DNA of 64,000 nucleotides from Desulfobacterales bacterium (GCA_049366795.1 JBMNCP010000062.1:6201-70200); one strand, 5' to 3'; numbered from the stretch's first letter, positions 14,359 to 60,468 are shown. Translations and numbers: made by a program. Notes: a model not told the origin generated them from the sequence alone.

Positions 14359-14389
14359 TGGCAATCTTTATGGGTTTCAAGGAACAGCT

Positions 14390-23325: not shown

Positions 23326-23931
23326 ATGGCATTCGTCAATCTCAAGAAGAAGGAAGTTCAAGTCAAGATTGTTTATTACGGGCCTGGAAGAGGGGGAAAG
23401 ACGACCAACCTGGAATATATCTACAAAAAGTTCAATGACCGTATCCAGACGGAAATGGTGACCGTCAAGACCCACGGTGATCGTACCCTCTTTTTTGACT
23501 TTCTCCCGTTCGATATCGGCAAGATCAACGGCTATACCGCCAAAATCCAGCTTTATACCGTTCCCGGTCAGGTCAAGTACAATGCGACCCGGCGTCTGGT
23601 GCTGCGCGGGGCGGACGGCATCGTGTTCGTCGCGGATTCCATGGCGGTCCGAAGAGAGAAAAACATCCTCTCCCTGAAGAATCTTCACGAGAATCTGAAA
23701 AACTACAAGAAGAGTATTTTTTCGGTCCCGCTGGTGTTTCAGTACAACAAGATCGATCTGGCCGAGCAGGGAATACCGATTCTGCCGTCGTCTACCATTG
23801 AAAAAGATCTCAACAGCCAGCTGAAAAAGCCCTCCTTCGAGGCAAGCGCCGTGGTAGGGACCAATGTGGTCGCGACGCTAAAGAAAATCATCATGATGAC
23901 GATGGCATCGATTAAGGACGAACTCAAGTAG
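23326..23931 (+). CDS. mglA: MglA-like Ras-superfamily small GTPase
   Basis: KIVYYGPGRGGKTTNL (P-loop), DRTLFFDFLP (switch I with Arg-Thr), LYTVPGQV (switch II Gln), YNKIDL (NKxD). Close match to my recollection of Myxococcus MglA. Confidence 0.88.
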   Translation: MAFVNLKKKEVQVKIVYYGPGRGGKTTNLEYIYKKFNDRIQTEMVTVKTHGDRTLFFDFLPFDIGKINGYTAKIQLYTVPGQVKYNATRRLVLRGADGIVFVADSMAVRREKNILSLKNLHENLKNYKKSIFSVPLVFQYNKIDLAEQGIPILPSSTIEKDLNSQLKKPSFEASAVVGTNVVATLKKIIMMTMASIKDELK

Positions 23932-39264: not shown

Positions 39265-40058
39265 TCGTCGCCGAGCACCTGAGAAAGATATTCAACCGCG
39301 GCGGCGTCAACGAAGCCACAGCCCTGGACGATCTCTCCATTCACGTCGAGAAGGGAGAATTCGTGACGATCATCGGCTCCAACGGAGCCGGAAAGTCGAC
39401 CCTTCTCAACTGCCTGGCCGGCACCTATCCGGTGGAAGGGGGAACGATCCGGCTCGATGGCCGTGACGTCACTTCATGGCCGGAGTATCGCCGTGCGAGG
39501 TATCTGGGGCGCGTCTTCCAGGATCCGCTGGTCGGCACCAGCGCTTCCCTCACGATCGAGCAGAATCTGGCGCTGGCAGTCAAGAGAGGCCGGAGAAGAG
39601 GGTTGCGCATCGGCGTCAGAAACGCCCACCGGGATCTGTTCCGGGCGCAGCTTTCGGTCCTGGGGCTGGGGCTCGAAGATCGCTTGAAGCTGAGCGTTGG
39701 CCTGCTTTCCGGAGGTCAGCGCCAGGCGCTCACCATGGTGATGGCAACGCTCATCCGCCCCAAGCTGCTCCTGCTGGACGAGCACACGGCCGCCCTGGAC
39801 CCGAAAACGGCGCGCCAGATCCTCGAACTGACCCGGGAAATCATCGATGGCCGCCGATTGACGGCCCTCATGGTCACGCACAACATGCACCACGCCCTCG
39901 ACCTGGGGAACCGTTTGATCATGCTCCACAGGGGGAGAATCATTCTGGACATCCGCGGGGCCGAAAAAGCGAATACCTCCGTCGACGATCTGCTCGAAAG
40001 ATTTTACTCGCAGCAGGGAGAATCGTTCGCGACCGACCGGGGGTTGCTTTCCGGATAG
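39261..40058 (+). CDS. ABC transporter ATP-binding protein
   Basis: Walker A GSNGAGKST, signature LSGGQRQAL, Walker B LLLDEHTAALDP. ATGA overlap with the permease gene. Confidence 0.9.
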   Translation: MIVAEHLRKIFNRGGVNEATALDDLSIHVEKGEFVTIIGSNGAGKSTLLNCLAGTYPVEGGTIRLDGRDVTSWPEYRRARYLGRVFQDPLVGTSASLTIEQNLALAVKRGRRRGLRIGVRNAHRDLFRAQLSVLGLGLEDRLKLSVGLLSGGQRQALTMVMATLIRPKLLLLDEHTAALDPKTARQILELTREIIDGRRLTALMVTHNMHHALDLGNRLIMLHRGRIILDIRGAEKANTSVDDLLERFYSQQGESFATDRGLLSG

Positions 40059-40215
40059 TTAAGCTAGTTAGGATAGTTATGTTAGTTGAGATAGTTATGT
40101 TAGTTGAGATAGTTATGTTAGTTAAGATAGTTAAGTTAGTTAAGTTAGTTTAGATAGTTGAGTTAGTTTAGATAGTTGAGTTAGTTTAGATAGTTTAGAT
40201 AGTTTGGTTAGTTTG
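40054..40215. repeat. Tandem array E: 18 consecutive 9-bp units G(A/T/C)TAGTTNN
   Basis: Read directly: GATAGTTAA GCTAGTTAG GATAGTTAT GTTAGTTGA ... GATAGTTTG GTTAGTTTG. Contains three tandem 18-bp GATAGTTATGTTAGTT(G/A)A copies; the third differs at one base. The first unit contains the TAG stop of the ABC ATPase gene. Confidence 0.95.
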
Positions 40216-40272
40216 GTCCTTTTCACTGGACAAATCCTCGACCCGATCCCGATGGGGATTGATTCTCCCTGG

Positions 40273-40292
40273 CGAAACGATTCCGTTGGCGT
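40273..40292. repeat. Dispersed intergenic repeat, copy 2 (20-nt identical core)
   Basis: CGAAACGATTCCGTTGGCGT is identical to 14339-14358. It lies about 60 nt after array E. Confidence 0.85.
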
Positions 40293-40348
40293 CGGTGGTT
40301 CCTCCCGTCACAAGCGCGTGCGGTTCGGAAATCAGACTCCTTCCAACC

Positions 40349-41722
40349 TCAATTCTTCAGGCTGTGAATCGGCGCGGGGATTCGTCCGCCGTGCTGCATG
40401 AATGCGTTTGCGGCGGAACCGTTTCGCACCGGGATGATCGTTGCCTCCCCCAGCAGGCCGCCGAAAGAGGCCTGGTCGCCCGCGGCCTTGCCGGGGACGG
40501 GGATCAGCCGCGCGGCGGTGGTCTTGCAATTGATGACGCCGATTGCCATCTCATCGGCGATGATGGCGGCCAGGGTTTCCGCCGAGGTGTCGCCCGGAAG
40601 CGCGATCATGTCCAGGCCCACTGAGCACACGCTGGTCAGGGCTTCGAGTTTCTCCAGGCTGAGATAGCCCCGGGCGGCCGCGTCGGCGATATTGAGATCC
40701 TCGCTGACCGGAATGAAGGCGCCGCTCAGCCCGCCCACGTGCGAGCTGGCGAAGGCCCCGCCTTTTTTCACCGCGTCGTTCAGCATGGCCAGCACGGCCG
40801 TGCTGCCCGGAACGCCGATGCGTTCGAGCCCCAGGCTCTGAAAAATCTCCCCGACGCTGTCCCCGATGTTGGGCGTGGGGGCAAGGCTCAAGTCCACGGC
40901 GCCGAACTCGATGCCCAGAGAATCGGCCACCTCGCGGCCGATCAGTTCTCCGACCCGCGTGACCCGGCATGCCGTTTTCTTGATGAGTTCGGAAATCTCC
41001 CCCAGGTCCATGCCGGGCTTCATCTCGAGCGCCCGGTCGATGGCCTTTTTGACCACGCCGGGCCCGCTAACGCCGACATTGATGACCGCATCGGGTTCCC
41101 CTATGCCGAGATAGGCACCCGCCATGAAGGGAATGTCCGGGGGAATGTTGGCAAAAACGCACAGCTTGGCGCAGGCGATGCCGTCGCGATCGGCCGTGAG
41201 CGCCGCCGACTCCTTGAGAATGCTGCCCATCATCAACACGGCATCCATGTTGATGCCGGCCCGGGTGGAGGCGACGTTGACCGAGGCGCAGACCCGATCG
41301 GTCTCCGCCAGTGCCGTGGGCATCGCCTCGAGAAGTGCCCGGTCCCCCTTCGTGAATCCCTTCTCCACCAAAGCGGAGTAGCCTCCGATGAAATCCACGC
41401 TCACCGATTCGGCCGCCTCGTCGAGCGTGCGGGCAACGGCCACCATTTCCTCAGCGCCCTGGTTTCCCGCGAAAACGGCCACCGGACTGACTGAGATTCG
41501 CTTGTTGACCACCGGGACGCCGTACTTGTCGCCGATGCGGTTGCACACCGGCACCAGGCGGCGGGAGAGGGTGCGGATCTTTTCCTTGATGTTGGCCCGG
41601 AGGCGGGCGGGGTTCTCGCTGGCGCAGTCCATCAGGCTGATGCCCAGCGTTACGGTTCTCAGATCGAGATGCTCGCTTTGGACCATCTCCAGGGTGGAGA
41701 GAATTTCATTTTGTGTCAGCAT
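40349..41722 (-). CDS. UPF0210 / DUF711 family protein
   Basis: 457 aa. MLTQNEILSTLEMVQSEHLDLRTVTLGISLMDC and the overall length match the UPF0210 family, from recollection. Confidence 0.75.
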   Translation of the reverse strand: MLTQNEILSTLEMVQSEHLDLRTVTLGISLMDCASENPARLRANIKEKIRTLSRRLVPVCNRIGDKYGVPVVNKRISVSPVAVFAGNQGAEEMVAVARTLDEAAESVSVDFIGGYSALVEKGFTKGDRALLEAMPTALAETDRVCASVNVASTRAGINMDAVLMMGSILKESAALTADRDGIACAKLCVFANIPPDIPFMAGAYLGIGEPDAVINVGVSGPGVVKKAIDRALEMKPGMDLGEISELIKKTACRVTRVGELIGREVADSLGIEFGAVDLSLAPTPNIGDSVGEIFQSLGLERIGVPGSTAVLAMLNDAVKKGGAFASSHVGGLSGAFIPVSEDLNIADAAARGYLSLEKLEALTSVCSVGLDMIALPGDTSAETLAAIIADEMAIGVINCKTTAARLIPVPGKAAGDQASFGGLLGEATIIPVRNGSAANAFMQHGGRIPAPIHSLKN

Positions 41723-41789
41723 GGATCGTCACCATCTACGACGGGGTTGAGGAGTGAAAACGCGTTGCCGGCATTCATGGAGGGTAGGC

Positions 41790-42344
41790 TCAGATACGGT
41801 TCAACACCTTGAAGATCTCCCGGTGTTGAATACTGATCTTCAGCCTGAGTTTTTCGGATCGACTTTTCAGATCCGCAAAAAGGGCATCGTGATCCGCCCG
41901 GCGTGGAATATCCACTTCGTAAATCATGATGTTGGCCGTGGGATCGTCTCCACCCTTGAATAGCGCTTGAAGATTGGTGATGTTGACCCCGTGATGGGCG
42001 AGAACGGCGCTGATTTCCGCCACCAGACCCTTCCGGTCGGGGCCGCGGGTGGTGATGACGAAGGGATCGGCCTCCGGCGCGGAGGAGGGGGCTTCCAGCG
42101 CCGCCATCGGTTGAACGTGCACCTGAAGCCCCATGGAGGAAAGCCGTTCCGCGAGGGCATCTTCGATCGTCGAAGGCGCCAGGCGGTCCGGTATGGCCGC
42201 AATGAAGATCCCGGCAAAACAGGACTGCAAGGTCGTCTGACTCACGTTCTCGATATTGCTTTCATGCTCGAGGAGGACGCGGGAGACGGCGGCGATGATG
42301 CCCGGGCGGTCCTGGCCCAGTACGGAGATGATGATCTTGCTCAT
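41790..42344 (-). CDS. Tandem ACT-domain protein (glycine-cleavage-regulator-like)
   Basis: Two ACT-type repeats: IIISVLGQDRPGIIAAVSRVL and FVITTRGPDRKGLVAEISAVLAHHGVNI. Confidence 0.75.
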   Translation of the reverse strand: MSKIIISVLGQDRPGIIAAVSRVLLEHESNIENVSQTTLQSCFAGIFIAAIPDRLAPSTIEDALAERLSSMGLQVHVQPMAALEAPSSAPEADPFVITTRGPDRKGLVAEISAVLAHHGVNITNLQALFKGGDDPTANIMIYEVDIPRRADHDALFADLKSRSEKLRLKISIQHREIFKVLNRI

Positions 42345-43369
42345 GGATTCGGTCCGGTATGCGGTCTGAGTATGCCGCGCCCGGCCTCGGTAATCCGGCT
42401 GACGCCCGTCAATACCATGGCTGAGAGCAGTTCCGACTTGATCTGGTCGATGTAGGCGTGGACGCCTTCCTTGAGCCCGCCCATGACAGCCACGGAGAAC
42501 GGGCGGCCGATCATGACCGCATCGGCCCCGAGGGCGATCATTTTCAGGACATCCGCCCCCGAGCGGACACCGCCGTCGGCCAGGATCGCCACCTGGCCCT
42601 TGACGGCGTCTGCAATCTCCGGCAGCACTTCCGCGGAGCCGGGCGTGTGGTCCAACACCCGGCCCCCGTGGTTGGAGACCACAATGGCCGCAGCTCCCGC
42701 ATCGACGGCAAGCTTCGCCTGGTCCACGGTCATGATGCCCTTGAGGATGAAGCGGGCGGACACCCGGCGAATGATCCCGGCGAGTTTCTCGACAGGCTTG
42801 GGCGTTACCGGCCGTCCCATGAGTTTCAAGGTGATGAGTCCGGCGGCATCGATGTCCATTCCGATGACGTCCGCTCCGGTTTCGAGCGCCTTCTCCAATT
42901 TCGGGAAGAGTTCGTCATCCTCCCAGGGTTTGATGAACGGAATTCCCTTTCCGTCGACGGATCGGATGGCGTCAAAGCCTGCTTCGTGAATGAAGGGAGG
43001 GACGCCGTCGCCGGTGCAGCCGACGATGCCTTTCTCGTGGCACCCCTGAAGCTTGGCGGTGATGTAATCCACTTCGGATACCTTGCCGCCCATGTTGAAC
43101 GAGACCCCGCCGATGGGCGCAGCCATCACCGGCAGGTCCAGGTCCATTCCCAGCAGTTCGACGCGGGTGTCAGGTGCGTCGACGCCGTGAATCAGGCGCA
43201 TGTTGAATCGCCAGCCTGCGAGCGCATCAAGATTGGCGCGGAAGGAGGCGCCGGTTCCGATTCCGCCCATCCCCGGCACTTCACCCGCGCAGACACGCCC
43301 GTTGCAAACCGGGCAGACCCTGCAGAAACCCTGCATCCGTTCTCTCGCTTTCGCCTTGACCGCCTTCAT
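42341..43369 (-). CDS. FMN-dependent alpha-hydroxy-acid dehydrogenase/oxidase family protein with an N-terminal Cys cluster
   Basis: TIM-barrel FMN motifs (AAIVVSNHGGRVLD, ILADGGVRSGADVLKMIALGADAVMIGR). N-terminal CRVCPVCNGRVC. Preferred start MKAVKAK (ATG 43369). Overlaps the ACT gene start. Confidence 0.8.
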   Translation of the reverse strand: MKAVKAKARERMQGFCRVCPVCNGRVCAGEVPGMGGIGTGASFRANLDALAGWRFNMRLIHGVDAPDTRVELLGMDLDLPVMAAPIGGVSFNMGGKVSEVDYITAKLQGCHEKGIVGCTGDGVPPFIHEAGFDAIRSVDGKGIPFIKPWEDDELFPKLEKALETGADVIGMDIDAAGLITLKLMGRPVTPKPVEKLAGIIRRVSARFILKGIMTVDQAKLAVDAGAAAIVVSNHGGRVLDHTPGSAEVLPEIADAVKGQVAILADGGVRSGADVLKMIALGADAVMIGRPFSVAVMGGLKEGVHAYIDQIKSELLSAMVLTGVSRITEAGRGILRPHTGPNP

Positions 43370-43557
43370 GCATTTCCTTTCCGTTGGTTGTCTCCGTTGG
43401 GAGCCTTGTGGTATGAGGCCATCGTTGGAGATAATCACTCCCGATTGGGGGAAAGTTGAGCCGGTAGGTATCGTTTAGAAGGTGGATACTACCCACGCGC
43501 ATGCCGATGGGCGCTGACTGTCTTACTTATTCAAAAGTCCCAACGACCCCAACGATC

Positions 43558-43680
43558 TTAACCATTTTAACTATCCTAACTAACTTAACTAACCTAACTA
43601 TCTTAACTAACTTAACTATCCTAACTAACTTAACTATCCTAACTAACTTAACTATCTTAACTAACTAAACTATCTTAACC
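43558..43680. repeat. Tandem array F: ~13 units of 9-bp NNAACTA(T/A)C, the reverse complement of array E units
   Basis: TTAACTATC CTAACTAAC TTAACTAAC CTAACTATC ... TAAACTATC TTAACC. TTAACTATC is the exact reverse complement of the GATAGTTAA unit in array E. Confidence 0.95.
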
Positions 43681-43724
43681 GTACTACCCGCTCCGACCGC
43701 CATACAAACCAGAAGGACCCGTAA

Positions 43725-44564
43725 ATGTCAAAGCAAAACATGATGCAGATCGTGCGGGACCACAAAACCATGTTCGTGGTCATCGGGGTCTGCCTTCTGT
43801 TGATCGAAATCGAGATTTTTGCCATCGCCGCGATGAAATCAGGCCGGAAGTCCACCATCCAGGTACTCACCCCGGAAGGCTCCGTGATCTACGAGGCGGA
43901 CGGCTCCAATCTGAGCCAGTTCGACAAATACTATTTCGAGCAGAATTTCGGCCCTCTCGACCGGTACGAACTCCGACTCGCAACGCGCGAGGTGCCGTTC
44001 CCGTTCCGGGCATGGTTCGTGGCGGCGTTCGGAATTCCGATCGGCGCCATGCTGCTGTTCGCCTTCCTGGTGAAGGCCTTCCTTGCCGTCTTCTACGGCG
44101 AGTCGCCGGAAACACCTCCGAGGGCCGATTCGCCGGATGACCGGAACCGCCGGGAGAGCACCCGCCTCGAGCGTCTCCTGCTGCGGCTGAGCCGCTACAA
44201 CATCTTCATCATCGGCTTCCTCATTCTGGTCGGCATTTTCGCCTACTGGGTGGTACCCAACCTCATCACCCACCTCGGACGGGTCGGCATCGAGACGCTG
44301 AGCCGCTTTAAATGGGGATTTCTCGGTCTCGGCGCCGTTGTGCTCGGGCTGCTGGTCTGGATCATCTACCTGCGGTTTCTCCTCGCCAGGAAATCACTGG
44401 AAAGCCAGACCGAGTTGGAGCGCTACCGGCTCGAGCTCGAATATCGGTCCGGGAACCGGGATGAAAAACTTCTGACGGACGGCAGCCCGGACCGTCCCCT
44501 TGTCGAATGGACCCCGCCGGTTGGCCGTCCGGATCCCGAATCCCGGAAGGATCGCCCGATATGA
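43725..44564 (+). CDS. Hypothetical membrane protein
   Basis: 279-aa ORF with about 4 predicted hydrophobic helices. ATGA-coupled to the downstream DHH-CBS gene. Confidence 0.6.
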   Translation: MSKQNMMQIVRDHKTMFVVIGVCLLLIEIEIFAIAAMKSGRKSTIQVLTPEGSVIYEADGSNLSQFDKYYFEQNFGPLDRYELRLATREVPFPFRAWFVAAFGIPIGAMLLFAFLVKAFLAVFYGESPETPPRADSPDDRNRRESTRLERLLLRLSRYNIFIIGFLILVGIFAYWVVPNLITHLGRVGIETLSRFKWGFLGLGAVVLGLLVWIIYLRFLLARKSLESQTELERYRLELEYRSGNRDEKLLTDGSPDRPLVEWTPPVGRPDPESRKDRPI

Positions 44565-45880: not shown

Positions 45881-45991
45881 TGTGACGGTGTACCGACGCG
45901 CCGCGGGTCCGGCAGCCGAAACCGATGGATCGTCGCGAGGTTCCGGGTTCGAAGGGAGGCGGTGCCGGACGTAACCGGGCCGGGGCCGGGT

Positions 45992-46546
45992 TCAGCCGAT
46001 GCGGCTCCGGTAGTCCTGAACGATTCGTTCGATTCGGCCCCGAATGAACTCTGCCAGGTCTTCCGCCTCGCTCCTCGTCATGATTTGGATGGTTTCGGCC
46101 AGTTCGGCAATGCGATCGTCGGGAATGTCGGTGGTCTTGTTGATCATGAAGTCGTCGACCTCCCCGTCTTCCAGCAGCCGGCCGCAGCCGCCGGCCGCGC
46201 CCAGAAACTCCCCGTCGACGAAGATCGGCACCACGATCTTGATCAGCCCCGCGTCGCACTCCTCGATGATAAAGTTCTTCGTGTTCTGCGCCATGGCGGC
46301 CATGTTCTGGTGGGCGACGGCGCAGATGTAGGTCTGGCCTTTTCCAGTCGCCCGGATCTCGGAGCAAAGCTCGCCGGTCGGGGCACTTTTTCCGCTGATG
46401 CCGATACCGTCGATATCGTAGACGCGGGCGCGCATCCCGGAGCGCTGGCGGATTTCCTCCTCCAGCTTCCCCCAATTTTCCGCGGGTTGCAGATCCGTCA
46501 ACAGCATGGATCGGTCTCCTTTCGCTGTCCTTCTGATTTGAGCCAT
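45992..46546 (-). CDS. Stand-alone PocR sensory-domain protein
   Basis: ~170-184 aa. Cys/His pattern ...CSEIR...YICAVAHQN...ECDAGLIKIVVPIFVDGEFLGAAGGCG is consistent with a PocR ligand-binding domain. The start is at 46546 or 46507; both overlap the oleD 3' end. Confidence 0.6.
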   Translation of the reverse strand: MAQIRRTAKGDRSMLLTDLQPAENWGKLEEEIRQRSGMRARVYDIDGIGISGKSAPTGELCSEIRATGKGQTYICAVAHQNMAAMAQNTKNFIIEECDAGLIKIVVPIFVDGEFLGAAGGCGRLLEDGEVDDFMINKTTDIPDDRIAELAETIQIMTRSEAEDLAEFIRGRIERIVQDYRSRIG

Positions 46547-51232: not shown

Positions 51233-51256
51233 GATCTCAGCGGGTCGATCGTCGGG

Positions 51257-54200
51257 TTAATCCGCGTTCGCGGCGTCCGCAACCAGGCGAACACCGAAAT
51301 TCAGCAGCTTATAAATGAAAAGGCCGTCCACTTTCAAGGCGCCGTCGATCCGGAATTCGGATCCGTTGTCCCCATCCTCCTCTTCGCAGGAGGCTTCGAC
51401 GACGATGGTCTTGTTGGAAGGCAATATCTGTCCGCGATACTGCCAGGTATGCGGGCTTCCGACGCGAAGCTCCAGCCTGTGGCCCGGATACCGGGTGCGC
51501 CAGATGTCGAGGGCGGCGCACCGGGCCATCTGGATCAGGGATTCGATGCCAAGGGAGCCCGGGCAAACAGGATCCTGGTGAAAATGAGCCTTGAAGTACC
51601 ATGCGGCGGGGTCGACATCCTTGAACCCTCGCATCTCCAGAACCCTTCCGCCGGCGGTCTGCCGGGGAGCCACCTGGATCCGGTCGATCATGCGAATGGC
51701 CCGAGCCGGAAGGCCGGGCGGGAAATCCGGTTCGTCCACGCGGTCTTCCGGCAAGAAAGGCGGCAGGTCCGTCAGGGTTTCGACCGGAACTGCGGTGGAT
51801 TCGGCCCCGACGCCGGCATCGAATGTCTCGCGGATGCCTCTTTGTTCGTCCAGGGCCTCCGCGGTAAAGAACCCGAAGCCGGTCCTGCCGGTGTAGACGG
51901 GGCTGCCTTCCCGCGACACCTCGAATTCGAACTGTTCGATGATCATATCCCCCGCGGACGAGGCGCGCAGGAGGCGGCAGCGTGTCGTCAGCGTGAAGGC
52001 GCCCCGGCGGACATTTTCATGAATCGTGGCGGTTCCGTCCAGATTGCGGAAGTGAAGGTCCTGTTCGCTTTTCAGCGCCGAACCCATGTAGGCTGCCAGA
52101 AATCCGCAGGACTGAAGCGCGATTTCCATGAGAACGCAAAGCGGCATCACGTCCGAACGGTTGGCTTGAAAATACCAGTGCCAGGGCTTGACGTCGAATT
52201 CCGTCTGGAGCCATCCGCCGGGCTCGAGCACCCAGGGTTCGGGCTCGGCAACGGTCACCCGGTCGATAAAGGAGTAGGGCGGCGCGGGAAGCCTGGCGAT
52301 GAACCGTCCGTCGTCGAACGGCCGGTAGCGGCTGCCGAAGGCGTCCGAGGGCCTTCCGGAGGCGAAGGCGAGGATGTGGCGGCGTTCGAAAACCGCCGGG
52401 ACTGTCCTGCCCGGCACTGGACGGTGTTCCGAACGCTTCCTCCAGAACTGCTTTAAGTCAGATTCCCCAACATTCGATAATTTAAGCGACATCCCCTTGA
52501 ATCGGACGATCCGCCGTCCGTCTGCGATCATCATGGCGTCGGCGATCGCGAAGGGTTCGGGATTCGATCCGATGTCGGTGATCTCGATTTCGTAAACCAC
52601 TTTTTTCGTTTCGGGCGTGACCGGCCCCCTGCATTTGAGAACCGCGGGCGCGGTCGTCAGCGGCTCGAAGCGAGCCTCCTCGTTCGGGCTGACCCATCCC
52701 ATCCCCTGCAACAGGACGCGGAGGGCGTGGGCGCAGCACTCATACATCAACGTGCCGGGCATGACCTGGTCATCCACGAAATGGCAGGTGAGAAACCAGT
52801 CGTCCGGCCGGATGTCCGCCTCGGCGCGGATGGCCCCCAGCCCGCCCGTGCCGCCGAAAGGATCCAGGTCGAGAACCCGGTGGATCAGACGCATCCGTCC
52901 GGCTGGCAGGCGCTGGCCTTCCGGGAGTCTGATGCCCGCGAAATCCGCTCCGAATGCCTTCTCGAGATCGCCGTCCCTCAGCGCATCGAGAGCCTCGTCG
53001 TCAATCCGTCGGGAGCGAACGGCGACCAGCGGCTCCGCCCCGCCCGCCGGAACCGGTGTTTCTTCGGGTTCGCCTGGCAGAATTCCGCCCGAGTTGCGGA
53101 CCTCTTCCTCGGTGAAGAAGCCGGCGCAGCCGTTTCGCATCGTGATCAACGGTTGTCCGGCGATCGATCCGTCGAATTCGAAAAAGAACATCCAGGTATC
53201 GCCCTGTTTGATGAATTTTTCGATCCGGATGTCGTAGCGGATCGTTTCTCCGGGAAGCGGCAACCCCCGGTGAAAGGTGACCGTGGCGTCGAGAAGCCGG
53301 TAGGTGCGCAGGCCCCTGACGTGGAGATCGATCCCAAGATAGGCGCACAAAAAGAGGTCGGCCTGGCCCGCCTCCACCGAAATGCAGACCGGCGCCCGGC
53401 CGCCGTCCAGGTACCACTGGTCCGGCAGGACATCGTGTTCCGTGACAATCCTTCCCGGTCCCAGCTGCCCTTTCCGGCCTTCGATCCGAAGGATCCGGTC
53501 CACCAGCATCAGGGGCTCGTCCGGCAGCCGGACCCGTACGCGATACCGGTCCACCTCCGCAAAATCGGGACCGAACAGGCGAGCAACGGATCCCACCGCG
53601 AACTCCATGCATTGCCCGCGGGTGAAGACAGGGGCGGGAATGCCGGAATGCGAAAATGCGGGAAAGCGGGGATGCGGGGGCGTGGAAAGCGCGGTTTCCG
53701 GGGTATCCGGGACGTTGGGCGCTGGAACGGCTGAAGACGTTTTGCCGCCCGGTTTCGTTCCCGGGGGCGACGCCGCCAGCAGGCGGGATTTGAGTTCAAC
53801 CGCATCGGCGTACGACCGGATCCAGTCCTGAGATAGTGAAAGGAATCGCTCATGGGCCGCGCTGGTCTGCTCCGAGCTTTCGACGAGGTCCTGGACCAGC
53901 CGGTCGATCGATGGCTGGGCGAACGTCGGGTACGGGGTCGGCGGACCGGAGACGGACGCCGGTACCCGGTAAGAGGCCGCTTCCGGGGCGGGGGAGGGTG
54001 CATCGACGGCCAGGGCCGGAAGCGCCGGCCAGTCGATCGACTTTCCGCCGTTGACCACCCGGATCGATGCGGACGGATCGACCGAAGCCGTTTCCACGGC
54101 CGCCGGCCGGACGGTCAGAAGCGACCACTCCACCGGGACGCGGTGCACGGCCAGCGTTGCGGCGATCCTGGCGATGGCGGCAAAGTCGCCTTGGTGCCGA

Positions 54201-57200
54201 TGGGAGGCGGAAAGGGCCAGGTGAGGTCTGCCGTCGAGAATCTGCTGGATCATGCGCGTGCAGGAGGCCCCCGGCCCGGTTTCGATAAAGATGCGGACCC
54301 CGTCCCGGTAGACCCGCTCGACCAGCTTCGGGAAATCGAATCCGTCGAGCCCCTGCCGGAGGATGGACTCCGCCATGGCGTCGGACTCGATCCGGATCGG
54401 GGCGGCGTCCGCGCAGCCATAGAGCGTGATGCCGTTCAACTCCCGGACCGGCAGCCGGTGCAGGTCCCGGTAGGCATCGGCGGAAGGGGAAAGCGCGTCG
54501 CAGTGAACGCTGATCACCCCGTCCAGCGGTACGGCGTTGGCGCCGAGGCGCCGGACCAGCGCCTCCACCTGGGGGCGGTCCCCGCCGATGACGGATGCCT
54601 CGGGTGTGTTGACGATGAGCAGGCGAACGCGGGAAAATTCCTCCAGGGCCGATTGGATGGCGTCGGCCGGGCGGTCGACCACGACCGCGTGCCATTCGAA
54701 CGTTTCGGTTTCGGATAGCCCCCAGGCTTTGCGGGCCGAACGGCAGGCGCCGTAGAGCGCATGGGTGAACAGGTCCGTCTTCTGAATCCGCTTCAGCATC
54801 TCGTCGGGATGGGGCCATGCCCCGGTTGCGAAATAGGCGGCGGATTCGCCCAGGCTGTAGCCGAAAGCGGCGCGGGGCCTCAGCCCCAGGCGTTCGAGAA
54901 GGCGCGTCACCACCAGGCCGTGGGTGACGTGACCGCAAAAAAGATCCCTGGGATCCCGGGACAACCCGGCCATGGCCGCGGACTCCCAGCCGGGGGGCCA
55001 CTCGCTGCGGCACGGCAGAAGCCGTCCGGGGCGGGCTCGGTCCCGAAGCCTTCCCGTCTCCCGGTCCATTTCATCGAGAATGCCGGGCCAGAACAGTCCG
55101 ATCTCCCGCCCCATTCCCGGAAACTGGTTTCCCGATCCGGGATAGACCAGCGCCACTGCGGACGACGCGCCCAACGGGGCAGAGGCGTAGCAGGCGGCCG
55201 AGGTCGGCGTGAACCGGATTTCCGTTCCGTTCCGGATGGCAGTCCTGGCGGCTGCGATGGACCGTTTCAGCTCCCGGGGGTCGGAGCCCTCGACCGCGAC
55301 GGCGAGGCGAGCTCCGAAATCAGGGGGGTGTTCCCGAAGCCAGGCGGCCGCGGCGTGCCCGATCGGCCCGTCGAACTGCGAAGCCTCCCGTTCGAGCCGG
55401 TCCAGCCGGCTCAGGAGCGCATCCGGATCGGCCCCGTCGACCAGAAACATCCCCAGGGGCGGAAGGGACGCGGCATGGAGGCCCGCGGTCACGGGTACGG
55501 CGGCATCGGACGGTGCTTCCCGCAGCACCGCGGCCATGGCGACCCCATCCGGGGTCATGGCGCTGACGCAGGCACGTCGCGGGCCGTCTTCGCTATTCCG
55601 CAGCCAATAATGGGTGGCACGGGGAAGATGGAACCGCTCGGAATCCCACCCGGGCTCCTCGCCGACCGCGTATCCGGGAAGACCGGGGATCCGTCTCCGG
55701 TGGAGGCAAAGGGCGGTTTTCACGACGGCTGCCAGACCGGCGGCCGCCCCCGCGTGTCCGATCGCGGACTTGACGGAGCCGATCGCGCAGGGAAACGGGC
55801 GGGCCGGAAAGACGCGGTGGAATGCCTCCCTTTCCGCTCGGTCCTCCGGGGGAAACCCGCTGCCGTGGGATTCGACGTATTCGATTGCTTCCGGACCGAC
55901 CCCGGCGTCCCGGAATGCAAGCGCAATGGCGTCGGAACAAGCGGTCGAAGCAGGCGCCTCCGTGGGAGCGAATGCCCCGGAAACGGATCCCAGCCCATCC
56001 AGAACGGCGTAAATGCGGTCTCCGGAGGATGTGGCGTCGGATAGCCGCTTGAGCACCAGGGCGGCCGCACCTTCGCCGGGAAGACTGCCGTCGGCTTTCC
56101 GATCGAAGGGATGGACTGCCGGCCGGCCGGACCATCCTCGAATGGCGTCCGCCGCAGCCATTTCCCGAAGGTCGCCCGGGAGATCCACCGCTCCGACCAG
56201 GACCGCGTCGACCTCGTGTCTTTGAAGCGACCGGGCGCCGATTTCGAGCGCCTTCATCCCGGAGGCGGCTTCACACGAGAGAACGAAGCTCGGGGCGCCG
56301 AACCGGAAGGCCTTTGCAATCCGGCTCGCGATCAGGCTTCCCAGGGCGCCCAGCGTCCGCACATGGGTGAGGGGGGGAGAAATGCCGTCGGCCAGGCGTT
56401 TTGCGCCACCCGCCGCCTCGACGGATTCAGTCCGAAGTCCATGTTTTCCTTCGAACTCCCGCAACAGGCGCCGCAGGCTCCAGCGCAGCTGAAACTGGGT
56501 TTCCTCGAAATCGAAACCCATGCCGATGACCGCCCCCATCCGGGGGCGTGCCGGTTCATCGGCCATGCCGGCGTCGGACAGGGCTTCCATCGCCACTGCC
56601 AGCATGAGCAGATGCTGCGGCAGAATATCGGGAATCTCCCTGGGCGGAATCGGAAATCTTCCCAGGGGGATGTCCAGGCGATCCAGGTAGTTTCCTTTCG
56701 GTGGGGAGCGGCGGAACAGGAGGTCCTGAACGGTGCGGCATCCTTTCCATCGGCTGGCGGGCGCTGAACCGAACTCATGGGCTTCCTTGAAAACCGCCTC
56801 CTCGAAAGCCTTCAACGAACCATATCGACCGAAGGCGGCCGACATGCCGACAATCACGACCGGCTCCTCGGCAGGCGGCGCCGGTGCGGCGACCGGCACG
56901 GACGTTTTTCCGGGAAGCCATTCCTCGACCAGGAGGTGAGCGTTGATACCGCCGAAGCCGAAAGCGCTGACCGCCGCTCGCCGCGGTGTGGCGGAATCCC
57001 TTTGATGCCAAGGTTCGGCGACCGTCTGGACCCTGAAGGGACCGTTTTCCAGCGGGCTTCCAGGACGCGGGCGGTTGAAGTTCAATGACGGCGGGAGCGT
57101 TCGGTGTTTCAGGCCGAGCAGGATTTTGATCAGGCCCGCGATGCCGGCCGCGGTGAGCAGATGGCCGATCGTCGACTTGACCGAGCCGATGGCGCACTGA

Positions 57201-58261
57201 CCCGGCGACCATGACGCACCTTCCCACAGCGCCCCGAGACTTTTGAGCTCGACCGCATCCCCGACCAGTGTGCCGGCACCGTGGCATTCGACCAGGTCCA
57301 CCTGGTCAGGGGTCCATCCGGCATCGGCGTAGGCCGCCCGCATCGCCCGCAGCTGGCCCTCCATCTCAGGCGCGAGCAGGCTGCCCCGCATGTCGTTGGA
57401 GAGGCCCATGCCTCGGATGATGCCGAGGATCGGGTCGCCGTTCCGAACGGCGTCCTCCAGGCGCTTGAGGACGACGAGCCCGGCGCCTTCTCCCACCACC
57501 AGACCGTCGGCATCCGCATCGAACGGAGCGGCGCGTCCGGACGGTGAAAGGGCCTGAAGCTGACTGAAGCCGATCTGCGTATAAAGGCAGTCGGGTCGCG
57601 AAACCCCGCCTGCGATCATGGCGTCCGCCCGGCCGGAACGAAGGGCGTCGCAGGCGAATTTGATTCCGAAAAGGGATGAGGCGCAGGCCGCGTCGAGCGT
57701 AAAGCTTCCGGCGCGGTAGCCGAAGGCACGGGCCAGTAGGGCCGCCGGCAGCGCCGTCACCCTGGAGGCCATCGCTTCGAGCGGCGTGACGGGATTTCGG
57801 GAACCGGCGGGTGATTCCGGAAACCAGCGGCGTTCGAGTTCCTTTCCGAACAGCTTCCGGGACAGTGCCGACGCCGCATCCGTGGGAAGGGCGATGGCGG
57901 CCAAAACCACGCCGATCCGCCCTGGATCCACGCTGTCGAGCCTTCCGGACTCCGCGATCTCCCTGCCGCAGTGGAGCACCAAATGATAAAGGGGATCCAG
58001 GGCCAGAAGGTGCTCCGGCGGAAGGAAATAACCGGTCGGGTCGAAGTCGAAGTCGAGAATCAAACCGGCCCGGTTGGACACGGCCCGGTCCGGCTCGTTG
58101 CGGCTCGAAACGACCGACGCCGCCGGAGCGATCCATCGATCCTCAGGCACCGGCCCCGTGCAGTCGAGGCGATGGATCAGGTGGTCCCAGAACTCGTCCA
58201 GGGACCGGCTCCCCGGGAAAATCCCGGAAGCTTCGATGACGGCGATGGGATGGGAAGTCAT
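51257..58261 (-). CDS. PUFA-synthase-type megasynthase, PfaC/Pfa3-like: KS - CLF - AT - (FabA-like DH)x2, 2334 aa
   Basis: See the domain features below. No ACP, KR or ER segment is recognisable in this ORF. Confidence 0.88.
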   Translation of the reverse strand: MTSHPIAVIEASGIFPGSRSLDEFWDHLIHRLDCTGPVPEDRWIAPAASVVSSRNEPDRAVSNRAGLILDFDFDPTGYFLPPEHLLALDPLYHLVLHCGREIAESGRLDSVDPGRIGVVLAAIALPTDAASALSRKLFGKELERRWFPESPAGSRNPVTPLEAMASRVTALPAALLARAFGYRAGSFTLDAACASSLFGIKFACDALRSGRADAMIAGGVSRPDCLYTQIGFSQLQALSPSGRAAPFDADADGLVVGEGAGLVVLKRLEDAVRNGDPILGIIRGMGLSNDMRGSLLAPEMEGQLRAMRAAYADAGWTPDQVDLVECHGAGTLVGDAVELKSLGALWEGASWSPGQCAIGSVKSTIGHLLTAAGIAGLIKILLGLKHRTLPPSLNFNRPRPGSPLENGPFRVQTVAEPWHQRDSATPRRAAVSAFGFGGINAHLLVEEWLPGKTSVPVAAPAPPAEEPVVIVGMSAAFGRYGSLKAFEEAVFKEAHEFGSAPASRWKGCRTVQDLLFRRSPPKGNYLDRLDIPLGRFPIPPREIPDILPQHLLMLAVAMEALSDAGMADEPARPRMGAVIGMGFDFEETQFQLRWSLRRLLREFEGKHGLRTESVEAAGGAKRLADGISPPLTHVRTLGALGSLIASRIAKAFRFGAPSFVLSCEAASGMKALEIGARSLQRHEVDAVLVGAVDLPGDLREMAAADAIRGWSGRPAVHPFDRKADGSLPGEGAAALVLKRLSDATSSGDRIYAVLDGLGSVSGAFAPTEAPASTACSDAIALAFRDAGVGPEAIEYVESHGSGFPPEDRAEREAFHRVFPARPFPCAIGSVKSAIGHAGAAAGLAAVVKTALCLHRRRIPGLPGYAVGEEPGWDSERFHLPRATHYWLRNSEDGPRRACVSAMTPDGVAMAAVLREAPSDAAVPVTAGLHAASLPPLGMFLVDGADPDALLSRLDRLEREASQFDGPIGHAAAAWLREHPPDFGARLAVAVEGSDPRELKRSIAAARTAIRNGTEIRFTPTSAACYASAPLGASSAVALVYPGSGNQFPGMGREIGLFWPGILDEMDRETGRLRDRARPGRLLPCRSEWPPGWESAAMAGLSRDPRDLFCGHVTHGLVVTRLLERLGLRPRAAFGYSLGESAAYFATGAWPHPDEMLKRIQKTDLFTHALYGACRSARKAWGLSETETFEWHAVVVDRPADAIQSALEEFSRVRLLIVNTPEASVIGGDRPQVEALVRRLGANAVPLDGVISVHCDALSPSADAYRDLHRLPVRELNGITLYGCADAAPIRIESDAMAESILRQGLDGFDFPKLVERVYRDGVRIFIETGPGASCTRMIQQILDGRPHLALSASHRHQGDFAAIARIAATLAVHRVPVEWSLLTVRPAAVETASVDPSASIRVVNGGKSIDWPALPALAVDAPSPAPEAASYRVPASVSGPPTPYPTFAQPSIDRLVQDLVESSEQTSAAHERFLSLSQDWIRSYADAVELKSRLLAASPPGTKPGGKTSSAVPAPNVPDTPETALSTPPHPRFPAFSHSGIPAPVFTRGQCMEFAVGSVARLFGPDFAEVDRYRVRVRLPDEPLMLVDRILRIEGRKGQLGPGRIVTEHDVLPDQWYLDGGRAPVCISVEAGQADLFLCAYLGIDLHVRGLRTYRLLDATVTFHRGLPLPGETIRYDIRIEKFIKQGDTWMFFFEFDGSIAGQPLITMRNGCAGFFTEEEVRNSGGILPGEPEETPVPAGGAEPLVAVRSRRIDDEALDALRDGDLEKAFGADFAGIRLPEGQRLPAGRMRLIHRVLDLDPFGGTGGLGAIRAEADIRPDDWFLTCHFVDDQVMPGTLMYECCAHALRVLLQGMGWVSPNEEARFEPLTTAPAVLKCRGPVTPETKKVVYEIEITDIGSNPEPFAIADAMMIADGRRIVRFKGMSLKLSNVGESDLKQFWRKRSEHRPVPGRTVPAVFERRHILAFASGRPSDAFGSRYRPFDDGRFIARLPAPPYSFIDRVTVAEPEPWVLEPGGWLQTEFDVKPWHWYFQANRSDVMPLCVLMEIALQSCGFLAAYMGSALKSEQDLHFRNLDGTATIHENVRRGAFTLTTRCRLLRASSAGDMIIEQFEFEVSREGSPVYTGRTGFGFFTAEALDEQRGIRETFDAGVGAESTAVPVETLTDLPPFLPEDRVDEPDFPPGLPARAIRMIDRIQVAPRQTAGGRVLEMRGFKDVDPAAWYFKAHFHQDPVCPGSLGIESLIQMARCAALDIWRTRYPGHRLELRVGSPHTWQYRGQILPSNKTIVVEASCEEEDGDNGSEFRIDGALKVDGLFIYKLLNFGVRLVADAANAD
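51302..52504 (-). other. Megasynthase domain: dehydratase region 2 (pseudo-DH + FabA-like DH)
   Basis: PWHWYFQANRSDVMPLCVLMEIALQ segment, then AAWYFKAHFHQDPVCPGSLGIE (His2226, codon 51584-51586). Boundaries are approximate. Confidence 0.7.
52562..53659 (-). other. Megasynthase domain: dehydratase region 1 (pseudo-DH + FabA-like DH)
   Basis: TEHDVLPDQWYLDG segment, then FabA-type DWFLTCHFVDDQVMPGTLM (His1827, codon 52781-52783). Boundaries are approximate. Confidence 0.7.
54212..55144 (-). other. Megasynthase domain: acyltransferase
   Basis: VYPGSGNQFPGMG and the GxSxG motif AFGYSLGE (Ser1136, codon 54854-54856). Boundaries are approximate. Confidence 0.75.
55547..56815 (-). other. Megasynthase domain: chain-length-factor-like KS (active-site Cys replaced by Ala)
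   Basis: SFVLSCEAASG aligns to SFTLDAACASS, so the catalytic position (aa 665, codon 56267-56269) is Ala. His motifs ESHGSG and KSAIGH are retained. Boundaries are approximate. Confidence 0.7.
56852..58252 (-). other. Megasynthase domain: ketosynthase (active)
   Basis: DAACASS with Cys193 (codon 57683-57685). ECHGAGT and KSTIGH His motifs. GFGGINAHLLVEE end. Boundaries are approximate. Confidence 0.8.
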
Positions 58262-58399
58262 GAAAACAGTTGGCTCTGAGAATGACAGACCCCGGGCGCA
58301 GCATCCCGCACCCGGGTCAATATGATCGATCGGTGATTTTTATTCGTTCAGAAGCCTTCTTTCATACTCGAAATTCCCTGTCTCCGCAACCTTATAAAA

Positions 58400-58451
58400 G
58401 GCTAAAGGCGAAAGGCTAAAGGCGAAAGGGGAAAGGGCAAAGGGCAAAGGC
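58400..58451. repeat. Heptamer tandem array A (GGNNAAA x7)
   Basis: GGCTAAA GGCGAAA GGCTAAA GGCGAAA GGGGAAA GGGCAAA GGGCAAA GGC. Confidence 0.95.
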
Positions 58452-58649
58452 TGATGGTGAAGGGGTGAAAGATAATCGAGTTGGGAGTTGGGGCGATCCG
58501 GAGAGCGATTTCGCTTTCGTGCTTCTGACCGGGAATACGACTTGTTTTTTCCAGATACGCTCACTCGCTGGAGCATGGGAGCGAGGACATGACCCTCATT
58601 TCTGAATCGGACACGCTCGTTCCCATATCAAACCATCGCGGATGGGCAC

Positions 58650-58713
58650 CAGTTCACGGATCAGGACAATCGGCACACGGTTCACATCCCACGGTTCACG
58701 GCTCACGAATCAC
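58650..58713. repeat. Degenerate ACGGTTC-type heptamer repeats (distal part of the left IR arm)
   Basis: CAGTTCACGG ... CACGGTTCACATCC CACGGTTCACGGCTCACGAATCAC. Confidence 0.8.
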
Positions 58714-58730
58714 TCTCCGCCTTCTCCCTT

Positions 58731-58829
58731 GATCTTTGATCTTTGATCTTTGATCTATTATTCCTCGAGCCTTTAGCCCTTTCACTTTGGCCTTTAGCCT
58801 TTCCCCTTTAGCCTTTTTGCTTTTCCCCC
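58731..58829. repeat. Heptamer tandem array B: (GATCTTT)x3.7 then CTTTNNC units. Left inverted-repeat arm.
   Basis: GATCTTT GATCTTT GATCTTT GATCT ATTATTC CTCGAGC CTTTAGC CCTTTCA CTTTGGC CTTTAGC CTTTCCC CTTTAGC CTTTTTG CTTTTCC. The reverse complement matches arrays A and C. Confidence 0.95.
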
Positions 58830-58907
58830 AACGCCTTGACTTTCCAAAACGGAAGATTTAAAAAATTCCTTTCCTCGCCAACAAGTTTCCCTGGAGGTGG
58901 AATCAAA

Positions 58908-59498
58908 ATGACGGATCCAAGGCAGTCCTCGGAGAGCGAAGACCAGTTGCGGGCCATGCTTGCACGGACCGGTTACTCGGCAAAAGCCATCGATTACTAC
59001 ATCCGGAAACCCCACATGGGTTCCATCGAAAACGCCGATCAGATTTCGGAAATGGTCGGCACCTGCGGCGATTCCATGACGGTGTTCCTCAAGGTGGACC
59101 AAGGTCGCATCGAGGACGTGAAATACCAGATTCTGGGCTGTGCCGGCTCTATTTCCGCGGCGATGGCGGCGGTCGATCTCGTGAAGGGGAAAACGGTCGA
59201 GGAAGCCCTTGCGGTCGATGACGGCGATGTGTTCAAGTCCCTTGAGGAGATTCCGGCAAAGAAGCACCACTGCATTCAGCTTTCCGTGAAGGCCCTGCAA
59301 AAGGCCATCAGGGCCTACCAGAAGTCCAAGGGCGGCCAAGCGCTGATCTCCGCCGAGGTGCCTGCGGGACCGCCGCTGGCGGCGGGCAAGGGCAACGGTG
59401 AGACCGCTTGCTGCAAGCCCTCCCCGGGCAAGGGGAGTTGCGGCGGGAACGGCGGGGGATGCTGCGGTCATTCGGGCGGCCCGAAAATCGGCAATTAG
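58908..59498 (+). CDS. NifU/IscU N-terminal-domain-like Fe-S scaffold protein with a Cys/Gly-rich C-terminal tail
   Basis: Three scaffold cysteines in GTCGDSM, LGCAGSIS and KHHCIQLS. ATG 58908 is preceded by GGAGGTGG. Tail GETACCKPSPGKGSCGGNGGGCCGHSGG. Confidence 0.8.
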   Translation: MTDPRQSSESEDQLRAMLARTGYSAKAIDYYIRKPHMGSIENADQISEMVGTCGDSMTVFLKVDQGRIEDVKYQILGCAGSISAAMAAVDLVKGKTVEEALAVDDGDVFKSLEEIPAKKHHCIQLSVKALQKAIRAYQKSKGGQALISAEVPAGPPLAAGKGNGETACCKPSPGKGSCGGNGGGCCGHSGGPKIGN

Positions 59499-59532
59499 AG
59501 CCGAACGATCTGGATTCCAATTTTCATGCGAC

Positions 59533-59570
59533 GGCCTCTTTTCCGGACCCGGAAAGGGGCCGCCTCTTTT
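59533..59570 (+). terminator. Putative terminator after the NifU-like gene
   Basis: GGCCTCTTTTC / GGAAAGGGGCC stem (two G-U pairs) with a 7-nt loop, followed by GCCTCTTTT. Confidence 0.45.
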
Positions 59571-59621
59571 GCGGGAAGGCCGATCCGTAACGGTTGAGGG
59601 ATCGGAACGGGCAAATCACTG

Positions 59622-60233
59622 ATGACCGGTTATCGAGACGAGCAGCTCGAATGCCATCGGCAGGTCCGTGATGCCATCGCCAGGATGGGCGAGGTTGAAA
59701 AGGCCGCCCTTTTGAATGAGATCACACCCTACCTGGAGCTTCGCCGCCAGGTCGACCGCTTCCAGGAGGCTTTTTTCAGCGACACGTGTTCGGAGGCCTG
59801 CTTCAACAGCCGATTGAGTGCGTGCTGCACCAAGGACGGCATCATCACCTTTTTTGCGGATCACGCGATCAATGCGCTGACCGCACCGCTCGAATCCTTG
59901 AAATCGCTCATCGATGCCCTGACCGGCCATCGTTCCACCGGCAAATGCATCTACCTGGATCCCGGTGGCTGCCGCTGGCATATCAAGCCCGTCATTTGCG
60001 AAATGTTTCTGTGCGAGCCTGCCGCGCGCAACATCTTCTCCCTTTACCCCGAGGCCGGCCGTGAGTGGCAGCGGCTTCAAGCCGCCATCAAGGCGTTTCG
60101 ATGGCCCATCAGGCCGGTTCTCTTCGATTCCCTCGAAAAACGGTTCATCGCCCTGGGCGTCGATTCCCCCCTGATGCATCTGCACAAAAGCCCGGGGCTC
60201 ATCCGTCTCAAACAGCGTCATGGGGTGGAGTGA
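59622..60233 (+). CDS. Cys-rich YkgJ/UPF0153-like (putative Zn/Fe-chelating domain) protein
   Basis: CSEACFNSRLSACC and GKCIYLDPGGCRWHIKPVICEMFLC resemble the two halves of the CxxCxxCC-family domain. 203 aa. Confidence 0.55.
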   Translation: MTGYRDEQLECHRQVRDAIARMGEVEKAALLNEITPYLELRRQVDRFQEAFFSDTCSEACFNSRLSACCTKDGIITFFADHAINALTAPLESLKSLIDALTGHRSTGKCIYLDPGGCRWHIKPVICEMFLCEPAARNIFSLYPEAGREWQRLQAAIKAFRWPIRPVLFDSLEKRFIALGVDSPLMHLHKSPGLIRLKQRHGVE

Positions 60234-60309
60234 GGAAAGGCGAAAGGCGAAAGGCTCAAGGCTAAAGGCTAAAGGCTCGAGGGATAGATCAAAGATCAAA
60301 GCAGAAAGC
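60233..60309. repeat. Heptamer tandem array C: GGNNAAA units then (GATCAAA). Right inverted-repeat arm.
   Basis: GAGGAAA GGCGAAA GGCGAAA GGCTCAA GGCTAAA GGCTAAA GGCTCGA GGGATAG ATCAAAG ATCAAAG CAGAAAG. Starts at the last base of the stop codon of the YkgJ-like gene. Confidence 0.95.
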
Positions 60310-60360
60310 CGAGAGTGACCGTGAGCCGGGAGCGGGGTAAGGCAAATTGCCGAGCGTTCT

Positions 60361-60468
60361 AATCCTCAATCCACTAATCCTATAATCCTTCTTTCTACTT
60401 TCTACTCGCTACTTTCTGCTCGTTACTCGTCTACTTTCTGCTCGTTACTCGCTACTTTCCACTCGCTC
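60361..60468. repeat. Heptamer tandem array D: AATCCNN units then CT(T/C)(T/G)CTA units, with a 22-bp tandem duplication (21-nt conserved core)
   Basis: CTTTCTA CTTTCTA CTCGCTA CTTTCTG CTCGTTA CTCGTCTA CTTTCTG CTCGTTA CTCGCTA CTTTCCA CTCGCTC. CTACTTTCTGCTCGTTACTCG occurs twice in tandem. Confidence 0.95.

Follow-up and report, generated by a model that had tools for sequence, protein, structure and literature searches.

The stretch of 64,000 nt from an uncultured Desulfobacterales bacterium (GCA_049366795.1, JBMNCP010000062.1:6201-70200) analysed here, called the window below and read on one strand with all coordinates counted from its first letter, contains two gene blocks that are oriented opposite to both of their neighbours and are bracketed by inverted arrays of short tandem repeats. 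Cassette 1 (40349-43369) lies on the minus strand between plus-strand genes, and cassette 2 (58908-60233) lies on the plus strand between minus-strand genes. With a probability of about 0.6, we read the arrays as lineage-specific long simple-sequence repeats (LSSR) residing in the spacers between operons, the array pairs as inverted copies of spacer segments and the orientation of the cassettes as ancestral. A reading made before this analysis (the sequence-only reading) had given the coordinates and strands of both cassettes correctly, and its description of the boundaries as inverted arrays from different 9-mer and 7-mer families was confirmed by Tandem Repeats Finder (TRF) and by arm alignments. 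Its proposal that the arrays mark or drive the inversion of the cassettes found no support, as relatives without arrays keep the same orientation, the arms are 77-88% alike and cassette 2 has its probable promoter between them.

Cassette 1 is one operon encoding an FMN-dependent dehydrogenase-like protein (FMN_dh, 42341-43369), an ACT-domain protein (41790-42344) and a DUF711/UPF0210 protein (40349-41722), all on the minus strand. It is flanked on the plus strand by the genes for an ABC ATPase (39261-40058) and for a membrane protein of 279 aa with four hydrophobic helices (43725-44564). Cassette 2 consists of the plus-strand genes for a NifU-like protein (58908-59498) and for a conserved protein of 203 aa that belongs to no Pfam family (59622-60233). 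Its minus-strand neighbours are a gene for a 2334-aa protein resembling polyketide synthases (PKS) and polyunsaturated fatty acid (PUFA) synthases, which starts at 58261, and a DAC/YbbR (CdaA-like) gene, whose stop codon is at 60494. The enclosed genes are of a conserved housekeeping type and not typical phase-variable genes. A strong terminator-like hairpin of 12 pairs (7 of them G-C) with a T-rich tail is located at 59532-59562, between the two genes of cassette 2, which, given this hairpin, may not be fully co-transcribed.

The DUF711 protein, with homologues at 85-88% identity, and the 203-aa protein, with homologues at 49-61%, led to the contigs of relatives; the eight fetched loci represent six to seven independent genomes. 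Both sides of the cassette 1 operon are covered by loci L001 and L124, and the junction between the DUF711 and ABC genes by L123 and L125. As in the window, the membrane protein and ABC genes of L001 and L124 are on one strand and the FMN_dh, ACT and DUF711 genes on the other. At cassette 2, loci L002, L004 and L132 have the 203-aa gene on the strand opposite to that of the PKS-like and DAC genes, and in L002 and L004 the NifU-like gene stands beside it. TRF detected no arrays in about 97 kb of the relatives' loci (L001, L002, L004, L123-L125 and L132). One orientation only was found in the window and in all eight fetched loci, at cassette 2 down to 49% protein identity. Because the same gene order and orientation occur in relatives that lack the arrays, the opposite orientation of both cassettes is independent of the arrays; it is ancestral and stable.

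The spacers themselves differ. The convergent spacer of cassette 1 measures 39-73 bp in L001 and L123-L125 versus 290 bp in the window, and the divergent one 120-297 bp in the relatives versus 355 bp. The two spacers of cassette 2 are 203-261 and 28-74 bp long in L002, L004 and L132, compared with 646 and 260 bp in the window. When the window spacers were aligned with those of the relatives, no similarity was found outside the coding ends, and all four have been remodelled in comparison. The window's lineage acquired the arrays after its split from the relatives at about 88% DUF711 identity.

Long arrays were found by TRF at two loci only in the 64 kb, besides a short 8-mer run within a coding region. 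In a window of about 60% G+C, the array units of 7-9 nt contain about 27% G+C, show 63-91% matches (the four-copy TTGATCT run is perfect), are strongly strand-asymmetric and include many stop codons. Array 1 of cassette 1 was reported by TRF at 40054-40213 (period 9/18, 16.8 copies, score 162-183, unit GATAGTTAA/GTTAGTTGA), and its full extent is 40054-40222, with about 18 units of the form G[A/T]TAGTTNN, an 18-nt super-period, 27% G+C and a single C in 160 nt of the plus strand. Array 2 is the reverse complement of array 1; TRF placed it at 43557-43679 (12.6 copies), and in its full extent (43533-43686) it has no G on the plus strand. The TRF scores of the two 9-mer arrays range from 149 to 183. 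Two sigma-70-like matches (TTGAGA-16-GATAGT) occur within the units of array 1 (40086-40131, plus strand), directed antisense into cassette 1, and their number is no higher than in shuffled sequence (2 found, 1.4 expected).

The arms of cassette 1 can be aligned over 154 nt at 77% complementarity, or over 133 nt at 83%, and their longest exact inverted match is 26 nt. Counted from the outer ends, the two arrays are in register, unit by unit, for 12 units, and an irregular GTTAGTT-GTTAGTT doublet at units 10-11 is common to both. The degenerate units of array 1 are on the side facing the cassette, and on that side both arrays decay to GTTTGG/GTTGGG-type units followed by CTTTT. The first unit of array 1 includes the TAG stop codon of the ABC ATPase gene (40056-40058), whose product of 265 aa is equal in length to, and collinear to the last residues with, its 79%-identical homologue in L001. 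Array 1 lies 126 nt beyond the stop codon of the cassette 1 operon itself. Array 2 starts about 165-190 nt upstream of the FMN_dh start codon and ends about 40-45 nt upstream of the ATG of the membrane protein gene (43725).

The arms of cassette 2 are composite. The left arm (58696-58823) consists of the non-repeat sequence CGGCTCACGAATCACTCTCCGCCTTCTCCC, (TTGATCT)4 (58729-58756), the linker TATTCCTCG and (AGCCTTT)7 (58768-58816); a weaker similarity reaches outward to about 58650, and a degenerate (CGGTTCA)5 array (58671-58707) overlaps its outer end. The right arm (60234-60330) is an inverted copy of the left one, composed of (AAAGGCN)6 (60236-60282), the linker CTCGAGGGATA, (AGATCAA)2.3 (60286-60301) and the non-repeat sequence GCAGAAAGCCGAGAGTGACCGTGAGCCG; the TGA stop codon of the 203-aa gene lies 2 nt before its start. 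The arms match over 51 nt at 82% and over 33 nt at 88%, with a longest exact inverted match of 18 nt. They share the linker TATYCCTCGAG and about 30 nt of non-repeat sequence (CGGCTCACG.ATCACTCTC.GC.TTCT). A third array of the AAAGGC family, (AAAGGCN)8 (58397-58451), is located 136 nt upstream of the start of the PKS-like gene, inverted relative to 58768-58823 (312 nt between these arms) and direct relative to 60236-60282. Two unpaired arrays, (TAATCCT)4 (60360-60390) and the 14-mer (CTACTTTCTACTCG)5 (60391-60467), sit between the right arm and the DAC/YbbR stop codon. All of these cassette 2 arrays were detected by TRF. The NifU-like gene is preceded, on the plus strand, by a promoter-like element, TTGACT-17-TAAAAA (58836-58864), which lies 12 nt inward from the left arm. 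The array-less loci L002 and L004 keep this element as TTGAC(T/A)-17-TAG(T/A)(A/G)A before the NifU-like gene, and its conservation suggests that it is the promoter of cassette 2.

Since the units of the cassette 1 arrays are colinear and the cassette 2 arms share non-repeat sequence, the arms are duplicates, and both pairs are true inverted segmental duplications, not independent expansions. The shared unique sequence and unit order also led us to reject two other origins, namely the splitting of one array by an inversion and a telomere-like addition of repeats to ends. Moreover, since the arms abut stop codons and, at cassette 2, also a -35 element, they bracket complete transcription units.

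The complementarity of the arms also exceeds chance: the inter-arm duplexes were predicted at -147 kcal/mol for cassette 1 and -133 kcal/mol for cassette 2, against -44 +/- 6 and -54 +/- 5 kcal/mol for shuffled partners. Such very stable duplexes could be taken to mean that the 5' and 3' arrays are co-transcribed and pair into an mRNA panhandle serving stabilisation or RNase III processing, and a similar layout of array, gene and inverted array is found around murD in a Bacteroidota metagenome-assembled genome (MAG). It is, however, hardly credible as an explanation. The conserved promoter-like element of cassette 2 is downstream of the left array, which should place that array outside the mRNA, and for cassette 2 the panhandle was rejected on this ground. 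For cassette 1, the outer array lies well past the end of the operon, against the stop codon of the gene next to it, and the relatives do without arrays altogether. Scans with Rfam and for tRNA genes associated no RNA family or tRNA with the arrays.

The inversion proposed in the sequence-only reading, in which homologous or site-specific recombination between the arrays would flip the enclosed genes, can draw on the inverted repeats of 130-170 bp that flank both segments and on the 26-nt perfect match at cassette 1, about 25 nt or more of perfect match being a rough minimum for RecA-type recombination. Recombination between the arms is physically possible, and past flips, if even in number, would have ended in the ancestral orientation again. 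Yet none of the relatives without arrays differs in orientation at either locus, and the arms are 77-88% alike, with 18 nt as the longest perfect match at cassette 2. The arrays are duplicates and not halves of one split array, and the assembly of the contig runs unbroken through both of them. The search for an invertase or tyrosine recombinase suggested in the same reading was made with Pfam scans, which, across the genes of the 64-kb window, detected no domain of an invertase, a tyrosine recombinase or a transposase. Furthermore, as the likely promoter of cassette 2 is inside the repeats, a flip would move promoter and genes together and leave expression unchanged. Invertible cassettes are therefore a very unlikely explanation, and we infer that the arrays have no switching function.

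The distribution of the arrays with respect to transcription was evaluated on a curated map of 52 genes and 51 spacers, of which 10 are strand switches. Each of the four spacers that bear arrays is among these 10, a nominally significant association (P = 8e-4 with all gaps counted and P = 0.02 when restricted to gaps of at least 100 bp), and the chance that a random three-gene block and a random two-gene block are both exact opposite-strand units is 0.0026. These tests were made post hoc, on an effective sample of two pairs and with spacer sizes that include the arrays themselves. The alternative offered in the sequence-only reading, that arrays accumulate where transcription converges or diverges, thus fits the window, in four of four spacers; it rests there on two non-independent pairs, and the inverted pairs in other genomes described below point to no general rule of orientation. 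A link to head-on replication conflict was rejected, as the GC skew suggests that the plus strand is the leading strand throughout, which makes cassette 1 head-on and cassette 2 co-directional.

The confinement of every array to a strand-switch spacer would also be expected if the arrays were boundary or insulator elements, acting as a platform for a DNA-binding or nucleoid protein, as a G-less RNA tract for the loading of Rho or as a barrier to read-through and antisense transcription. This is an unlikely explanation, although several observations speak for it. The arms abut the boundaries of the transcription units exactly, at a stop codon and at a -35 element, and the same symmetry recurs at two independent loci whose unit families are unrelated. 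The G-less strands were predicted to be unstructured over 154-169 nt (0.0 and -1.0 kcal/mol), as expected of Rho loading sites, and the convergent spacers contain no intrinsic terminator. On the other hand, relatives with the same gene arrangement lack such elements and have spacers down to 28-73 bp, the five remaining strand-switch spacers of 100 bp or more in the window are without arrays, and no candidate binding protein was identified. The C-rich, G-poor strand points outward at cassette 1 and inward at cassette 2, which leaves no consistent Rho polarity; the polarity model of Rho loading was rejected for this difference.

A mobile origin was also considered, in which the arrays would belong to non-autonomous elements resembling foldback elements or miniature inverted-repeat transposable elements (MITE), which re-insert nearby, so that the two copies of a pair would be separate insertions. 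The duplicated segments contain unique sequence besides the arrays, the left spacer of cassette 2 has a foldback layout of (AAAGGCN)8, 312 nt and (NGCCTTT)7, and all four spacers are remodelled in comparison with the relatives. Another short dispersed element is present in spacers of this genome (14339 and 40273), and pairs of one family in neighbouring spacers are known from other phyla too. Nevertheless, no target-site duplication was found at any arm boundary when these were read directly, the window contains no transposase, and each family occurs at one locus only within the 64 kb. A scan of metagenome contigs with the 18-mer family gave six unrelated, mostly AT-rich contigs, with no relatives and no Desulfobacterales among them, and a looser scan of genome contigs with TAGTTNNGNTAGTTNNGNTAGTT returned unrelated genomes alone among the matches listed. 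Insertion of mobile elements is accordingly quite improbable.

The scan with TAGTTNNGNTAGTTNNGNTAGTT was over-generic, and many of its matches are probably coding 9-mer repeats. It served as a background sample of 119 arrays in at least 118 unrelated loci. Among the matches listed, 8 of the 119 arrays have an inverted partner of the same family in the locus and 13 have a distant direct partner, and array families therefore spread to neighbouring spacers in both orientations. Two inverted pairs with enclosed genes, again among the matches listed, differ from the pattern of the window. In L049, from the Bacteroidota MAG 'MSU bin76', inverted AGTTCAG/GAACTNCCT arrays (2882-2930 and 4645-4765) surround murD within a co-directional dcw cluster. 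In L046, from a MAG that is labelled Hyphomicrobiales but is AT-rich, inverted heptamer arrays of TAACAAT/TAATCAT versus GATTAAT/GATTAGT units (3420-3471 and 6235-6306) each lie directly 3' of a stop codon, one for each gene of a divergent metK/aldehyde-dehydrogenase pair. A second contig of 'MSU bin76', L059, has an inverted pair (387-563 and 709-768) with a gap of about 150 bp, and this MAG appears to be rich in paired arrays. The taxa and unit families differ from those of the window, and there is no sign of a general rule tying inverted arrays to opposite orientation. The co-directional genes around and within the bracket in L049 also speak against the suggestion, made in the sequence-only reading, that the arrays reflect a general mechanism of cassette inversion or shuffling. 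Our literature search found no specific account of inverted array pairs flanking bacterial genes.

Among known systems, the arrays come closest to the LSSR and to the short tandemly repeated repetitive (STRR) sequences, heptamer arrays reportedly described from cyanobacteria by Mazel et al. (1990). They share with both classes the tandem units of 7-9 nt, the intergenic position, the sporadic and lineage-specific occurrence and the presence of several families per spacer. The units are within 5-11 nt, repeated head-to-tail above chance and absent from the spacers of relatives, and the arrays lie between called genes, their sole overlap being that of array 1 with the ABC stop codon. In contrast to LSSR and STRR, they are inverted segmental duplicates around whole transcription units, an arrangement of which the literature search found no description. 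As summarised in PMC4679880, LSSR have units of 5-11 nt, heptamers are their commonest class, and slippage has been proposed as their origin (Mrazek et al. 2007). Heptamer-rich spacers whose orthologues in close relatives are shorter and repeat-free, in the same gene neighbourhood, have also been described, as have direct repeats of TAACTGA in marine Beggiatoaceae, Cyanobacteria and Bacteroidetes (MacGregor 2015, PMC4679880). The Desulfobacterales are not among the taxa listed in PMC4679880.

The G-less strand of the 9-mer arrays (TTAACTAAC/TTAACTATC) resembles the TAACTGA repeats in its TAACT core, its richness in stop codons and its RNA, which is predicted to be unstructured. It differs from these heptamers in its 9-nt unit with an 18-nt super-period and in its 13-18 copies as opposed to mostly 2-6. 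Array 2 is forward but about 40-45 nt from the ATG at 43725 instead of 1 nt, and array 1 is reverse and follows a stop codon. As far as seen, there are two such arrays here as against a genome-wide set.

Other systems share fewer features. Invertible switches, such as fimS, hin/gin, shufflons and the specificity shufflers of restriction-modification systems, also have a segment between inverted repeats; they possess short specific sites, an adjacent recombinase gene, both orientations in the population and a change of expression on inversion, and none of these features was found here. The repetitive extragenic palindromic sequences (REP) and bacterial interspersed mosaic elements (BIME) of enterobacteria, for which roles in termination, mRNA stability and the control of DNA topology have been proposed, have palindromic units dispersed genome-wide. 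Like them, the arrays are repeated extragenic sequences at operon ends and between convergent genes, but their units are without self-complementarity (0 to -1 kcal/mol) and each family is local to one locus. Eukaryotic foldback transposons have terminal inverted repeats built of tandem repeats, and their long inverted arms of short tandem units, degenerate at one end, recall those described here; unlike them, the brackets come with no transposase, target-site duplication or dispersed copies in the window, and the genes they enclose are native and syntenic with those of the relatives. We take the arrays for the form that an already known, though poorly understood, class of simple repeats in intergenic regions assumes in a new lineage, with an unusual arrangement in pairs.

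On the preferred reading, the arrays would have grown by replication slippage in spacers between transcription units, and an array-bearing spacer segment (about 155-170 bp at cassette 1 and about 130-175 bp at cassette 2) would then have been copied in inverted form to the other end of the adjacent transcription unit. The two copies would have diverged afterwards by substitutions and by local gain and loss of units. We propose that the arrays are found at strand-switch spacers because these inter-operon positions tolerate several hundred bases of AT-rich filler full of stop codons. The arrays occupy the spacers as far as the functional boundaries, which are a stop codon at one end and the -35 element of a promoter at the other.

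Several points weigh against this reading. The layout is unusually tidy for neutral filler, the arms being symmetric about a complete transcription unit in both cases; they abut stop codons (0 and 2 nt away) or end 12 nt before the conserved -35 element, and arrays occur at strand switches in four spacers out of four (P = 8e-4 to 0.02). We know of no mechanism by which a spacer would be copied in inverted form across 1.4-3.3 kb without inverting the DNA between, and such mirror-image copying would have happened twice, with unrelated unit families. In addition, this lineage is represented by one genome, with its closest relative at 88% (DUF711), and neither the age of the arrays nor selection on their complementarity can be judged on that basis. 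An undescribed process of inverted copying, for example template switching at the scale of transcription units or local movement without a transposase, after which the brackets would serve as boundary elements and of which L049 and L046 would be further instances, is another reading, which we consider improbable.

Outside the two brackets, a 20-nt motif (CGAAACGATTCCGTTGGCGT) occurs twice, exactly, on the plus strand (14339-14358 and 40273-40292; 0.02 expected by chance), and about 55 nt around the copies are alike (…CGATCCCGATGG…; contexts 14300-14360 and 40235-40295). One copy is located between array 1 and the DUF711 stop codon and the other about 25 nt upstream of an ADP-ribosylglycohydrolase gene (14400-15286); the motif could represent a binding site, with an AACG-N4-CGTT dyad, or else a small element dispersed among spacers. 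Just upstream of the copy at 14339, in a co-directional spacer, an imperfect inverted repeat of 35 nt (14157-14191 and 14260-14294, 77% complementary) with a short CGAGGGNT run surrounds 68 AT-rich nt. The ADP-ribosylglycohydrolase gene of the window is 45 kb away from cassette 2, and in L004 such a gene (8713-9483) follows the 203-aa gene inside the cassette 2 unit, a place where the window has none.

The 2334-aa protein, of KS-KS-FabA-FabA composition, belongs to a PUFA-synthase/PKS-like cluster on the minus strand (45992-58261 and 62561-63994), together with a KAS III-like protein, a hydrolase, an AMP-binding enzyme, an epimerase and a PocR-domain protein, and a second multidomain PKS begins at the end of the window. 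The cluster is kept in L001, L002 and L004, and the array-rich spacer 58262-58907 is its upstream region. The short 8-mer run, (GCGGGAAT)5.6 at 53634-53678, is within the coding region of the 2334-aa gene, which is unusual for a unit that is not a multiple of three. Elsewhere in the window, a gene for a Roadblock/LC7-domain protein stands beside one for a small Ras-like GTPase (22770-23931), an MglB/MglA-like pair upstream of sensor, PAS, response-regulator and T2SSE ATPase genes.

If the preferred reading holds, the Desulfobacterales would be added to the scattered set of lineages whose spacers contain long simple-sequence repeats, and they would join it with a clean, dated example, in which the orthologous spacers of relatives are repeat-free at 28-297 bp versus 260-646 bp of array-filled spacer in the window. 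The comparison also carries a lesson: finding inverted repeats on either side of a block that runs against its neighbours does not amount to evidence of inversion, as the orientation here is older than the repeats. What is unusual is that whole spacer segments were mirrored across an operon, twice, with different unit families. Two examples in one genome are a lead and not a finding; a copying mechanism or a boundary function, if true, would be relevant to the way in which intergenic regions of bacteria are put together and to the insulation of adjacent transcription units from each other.

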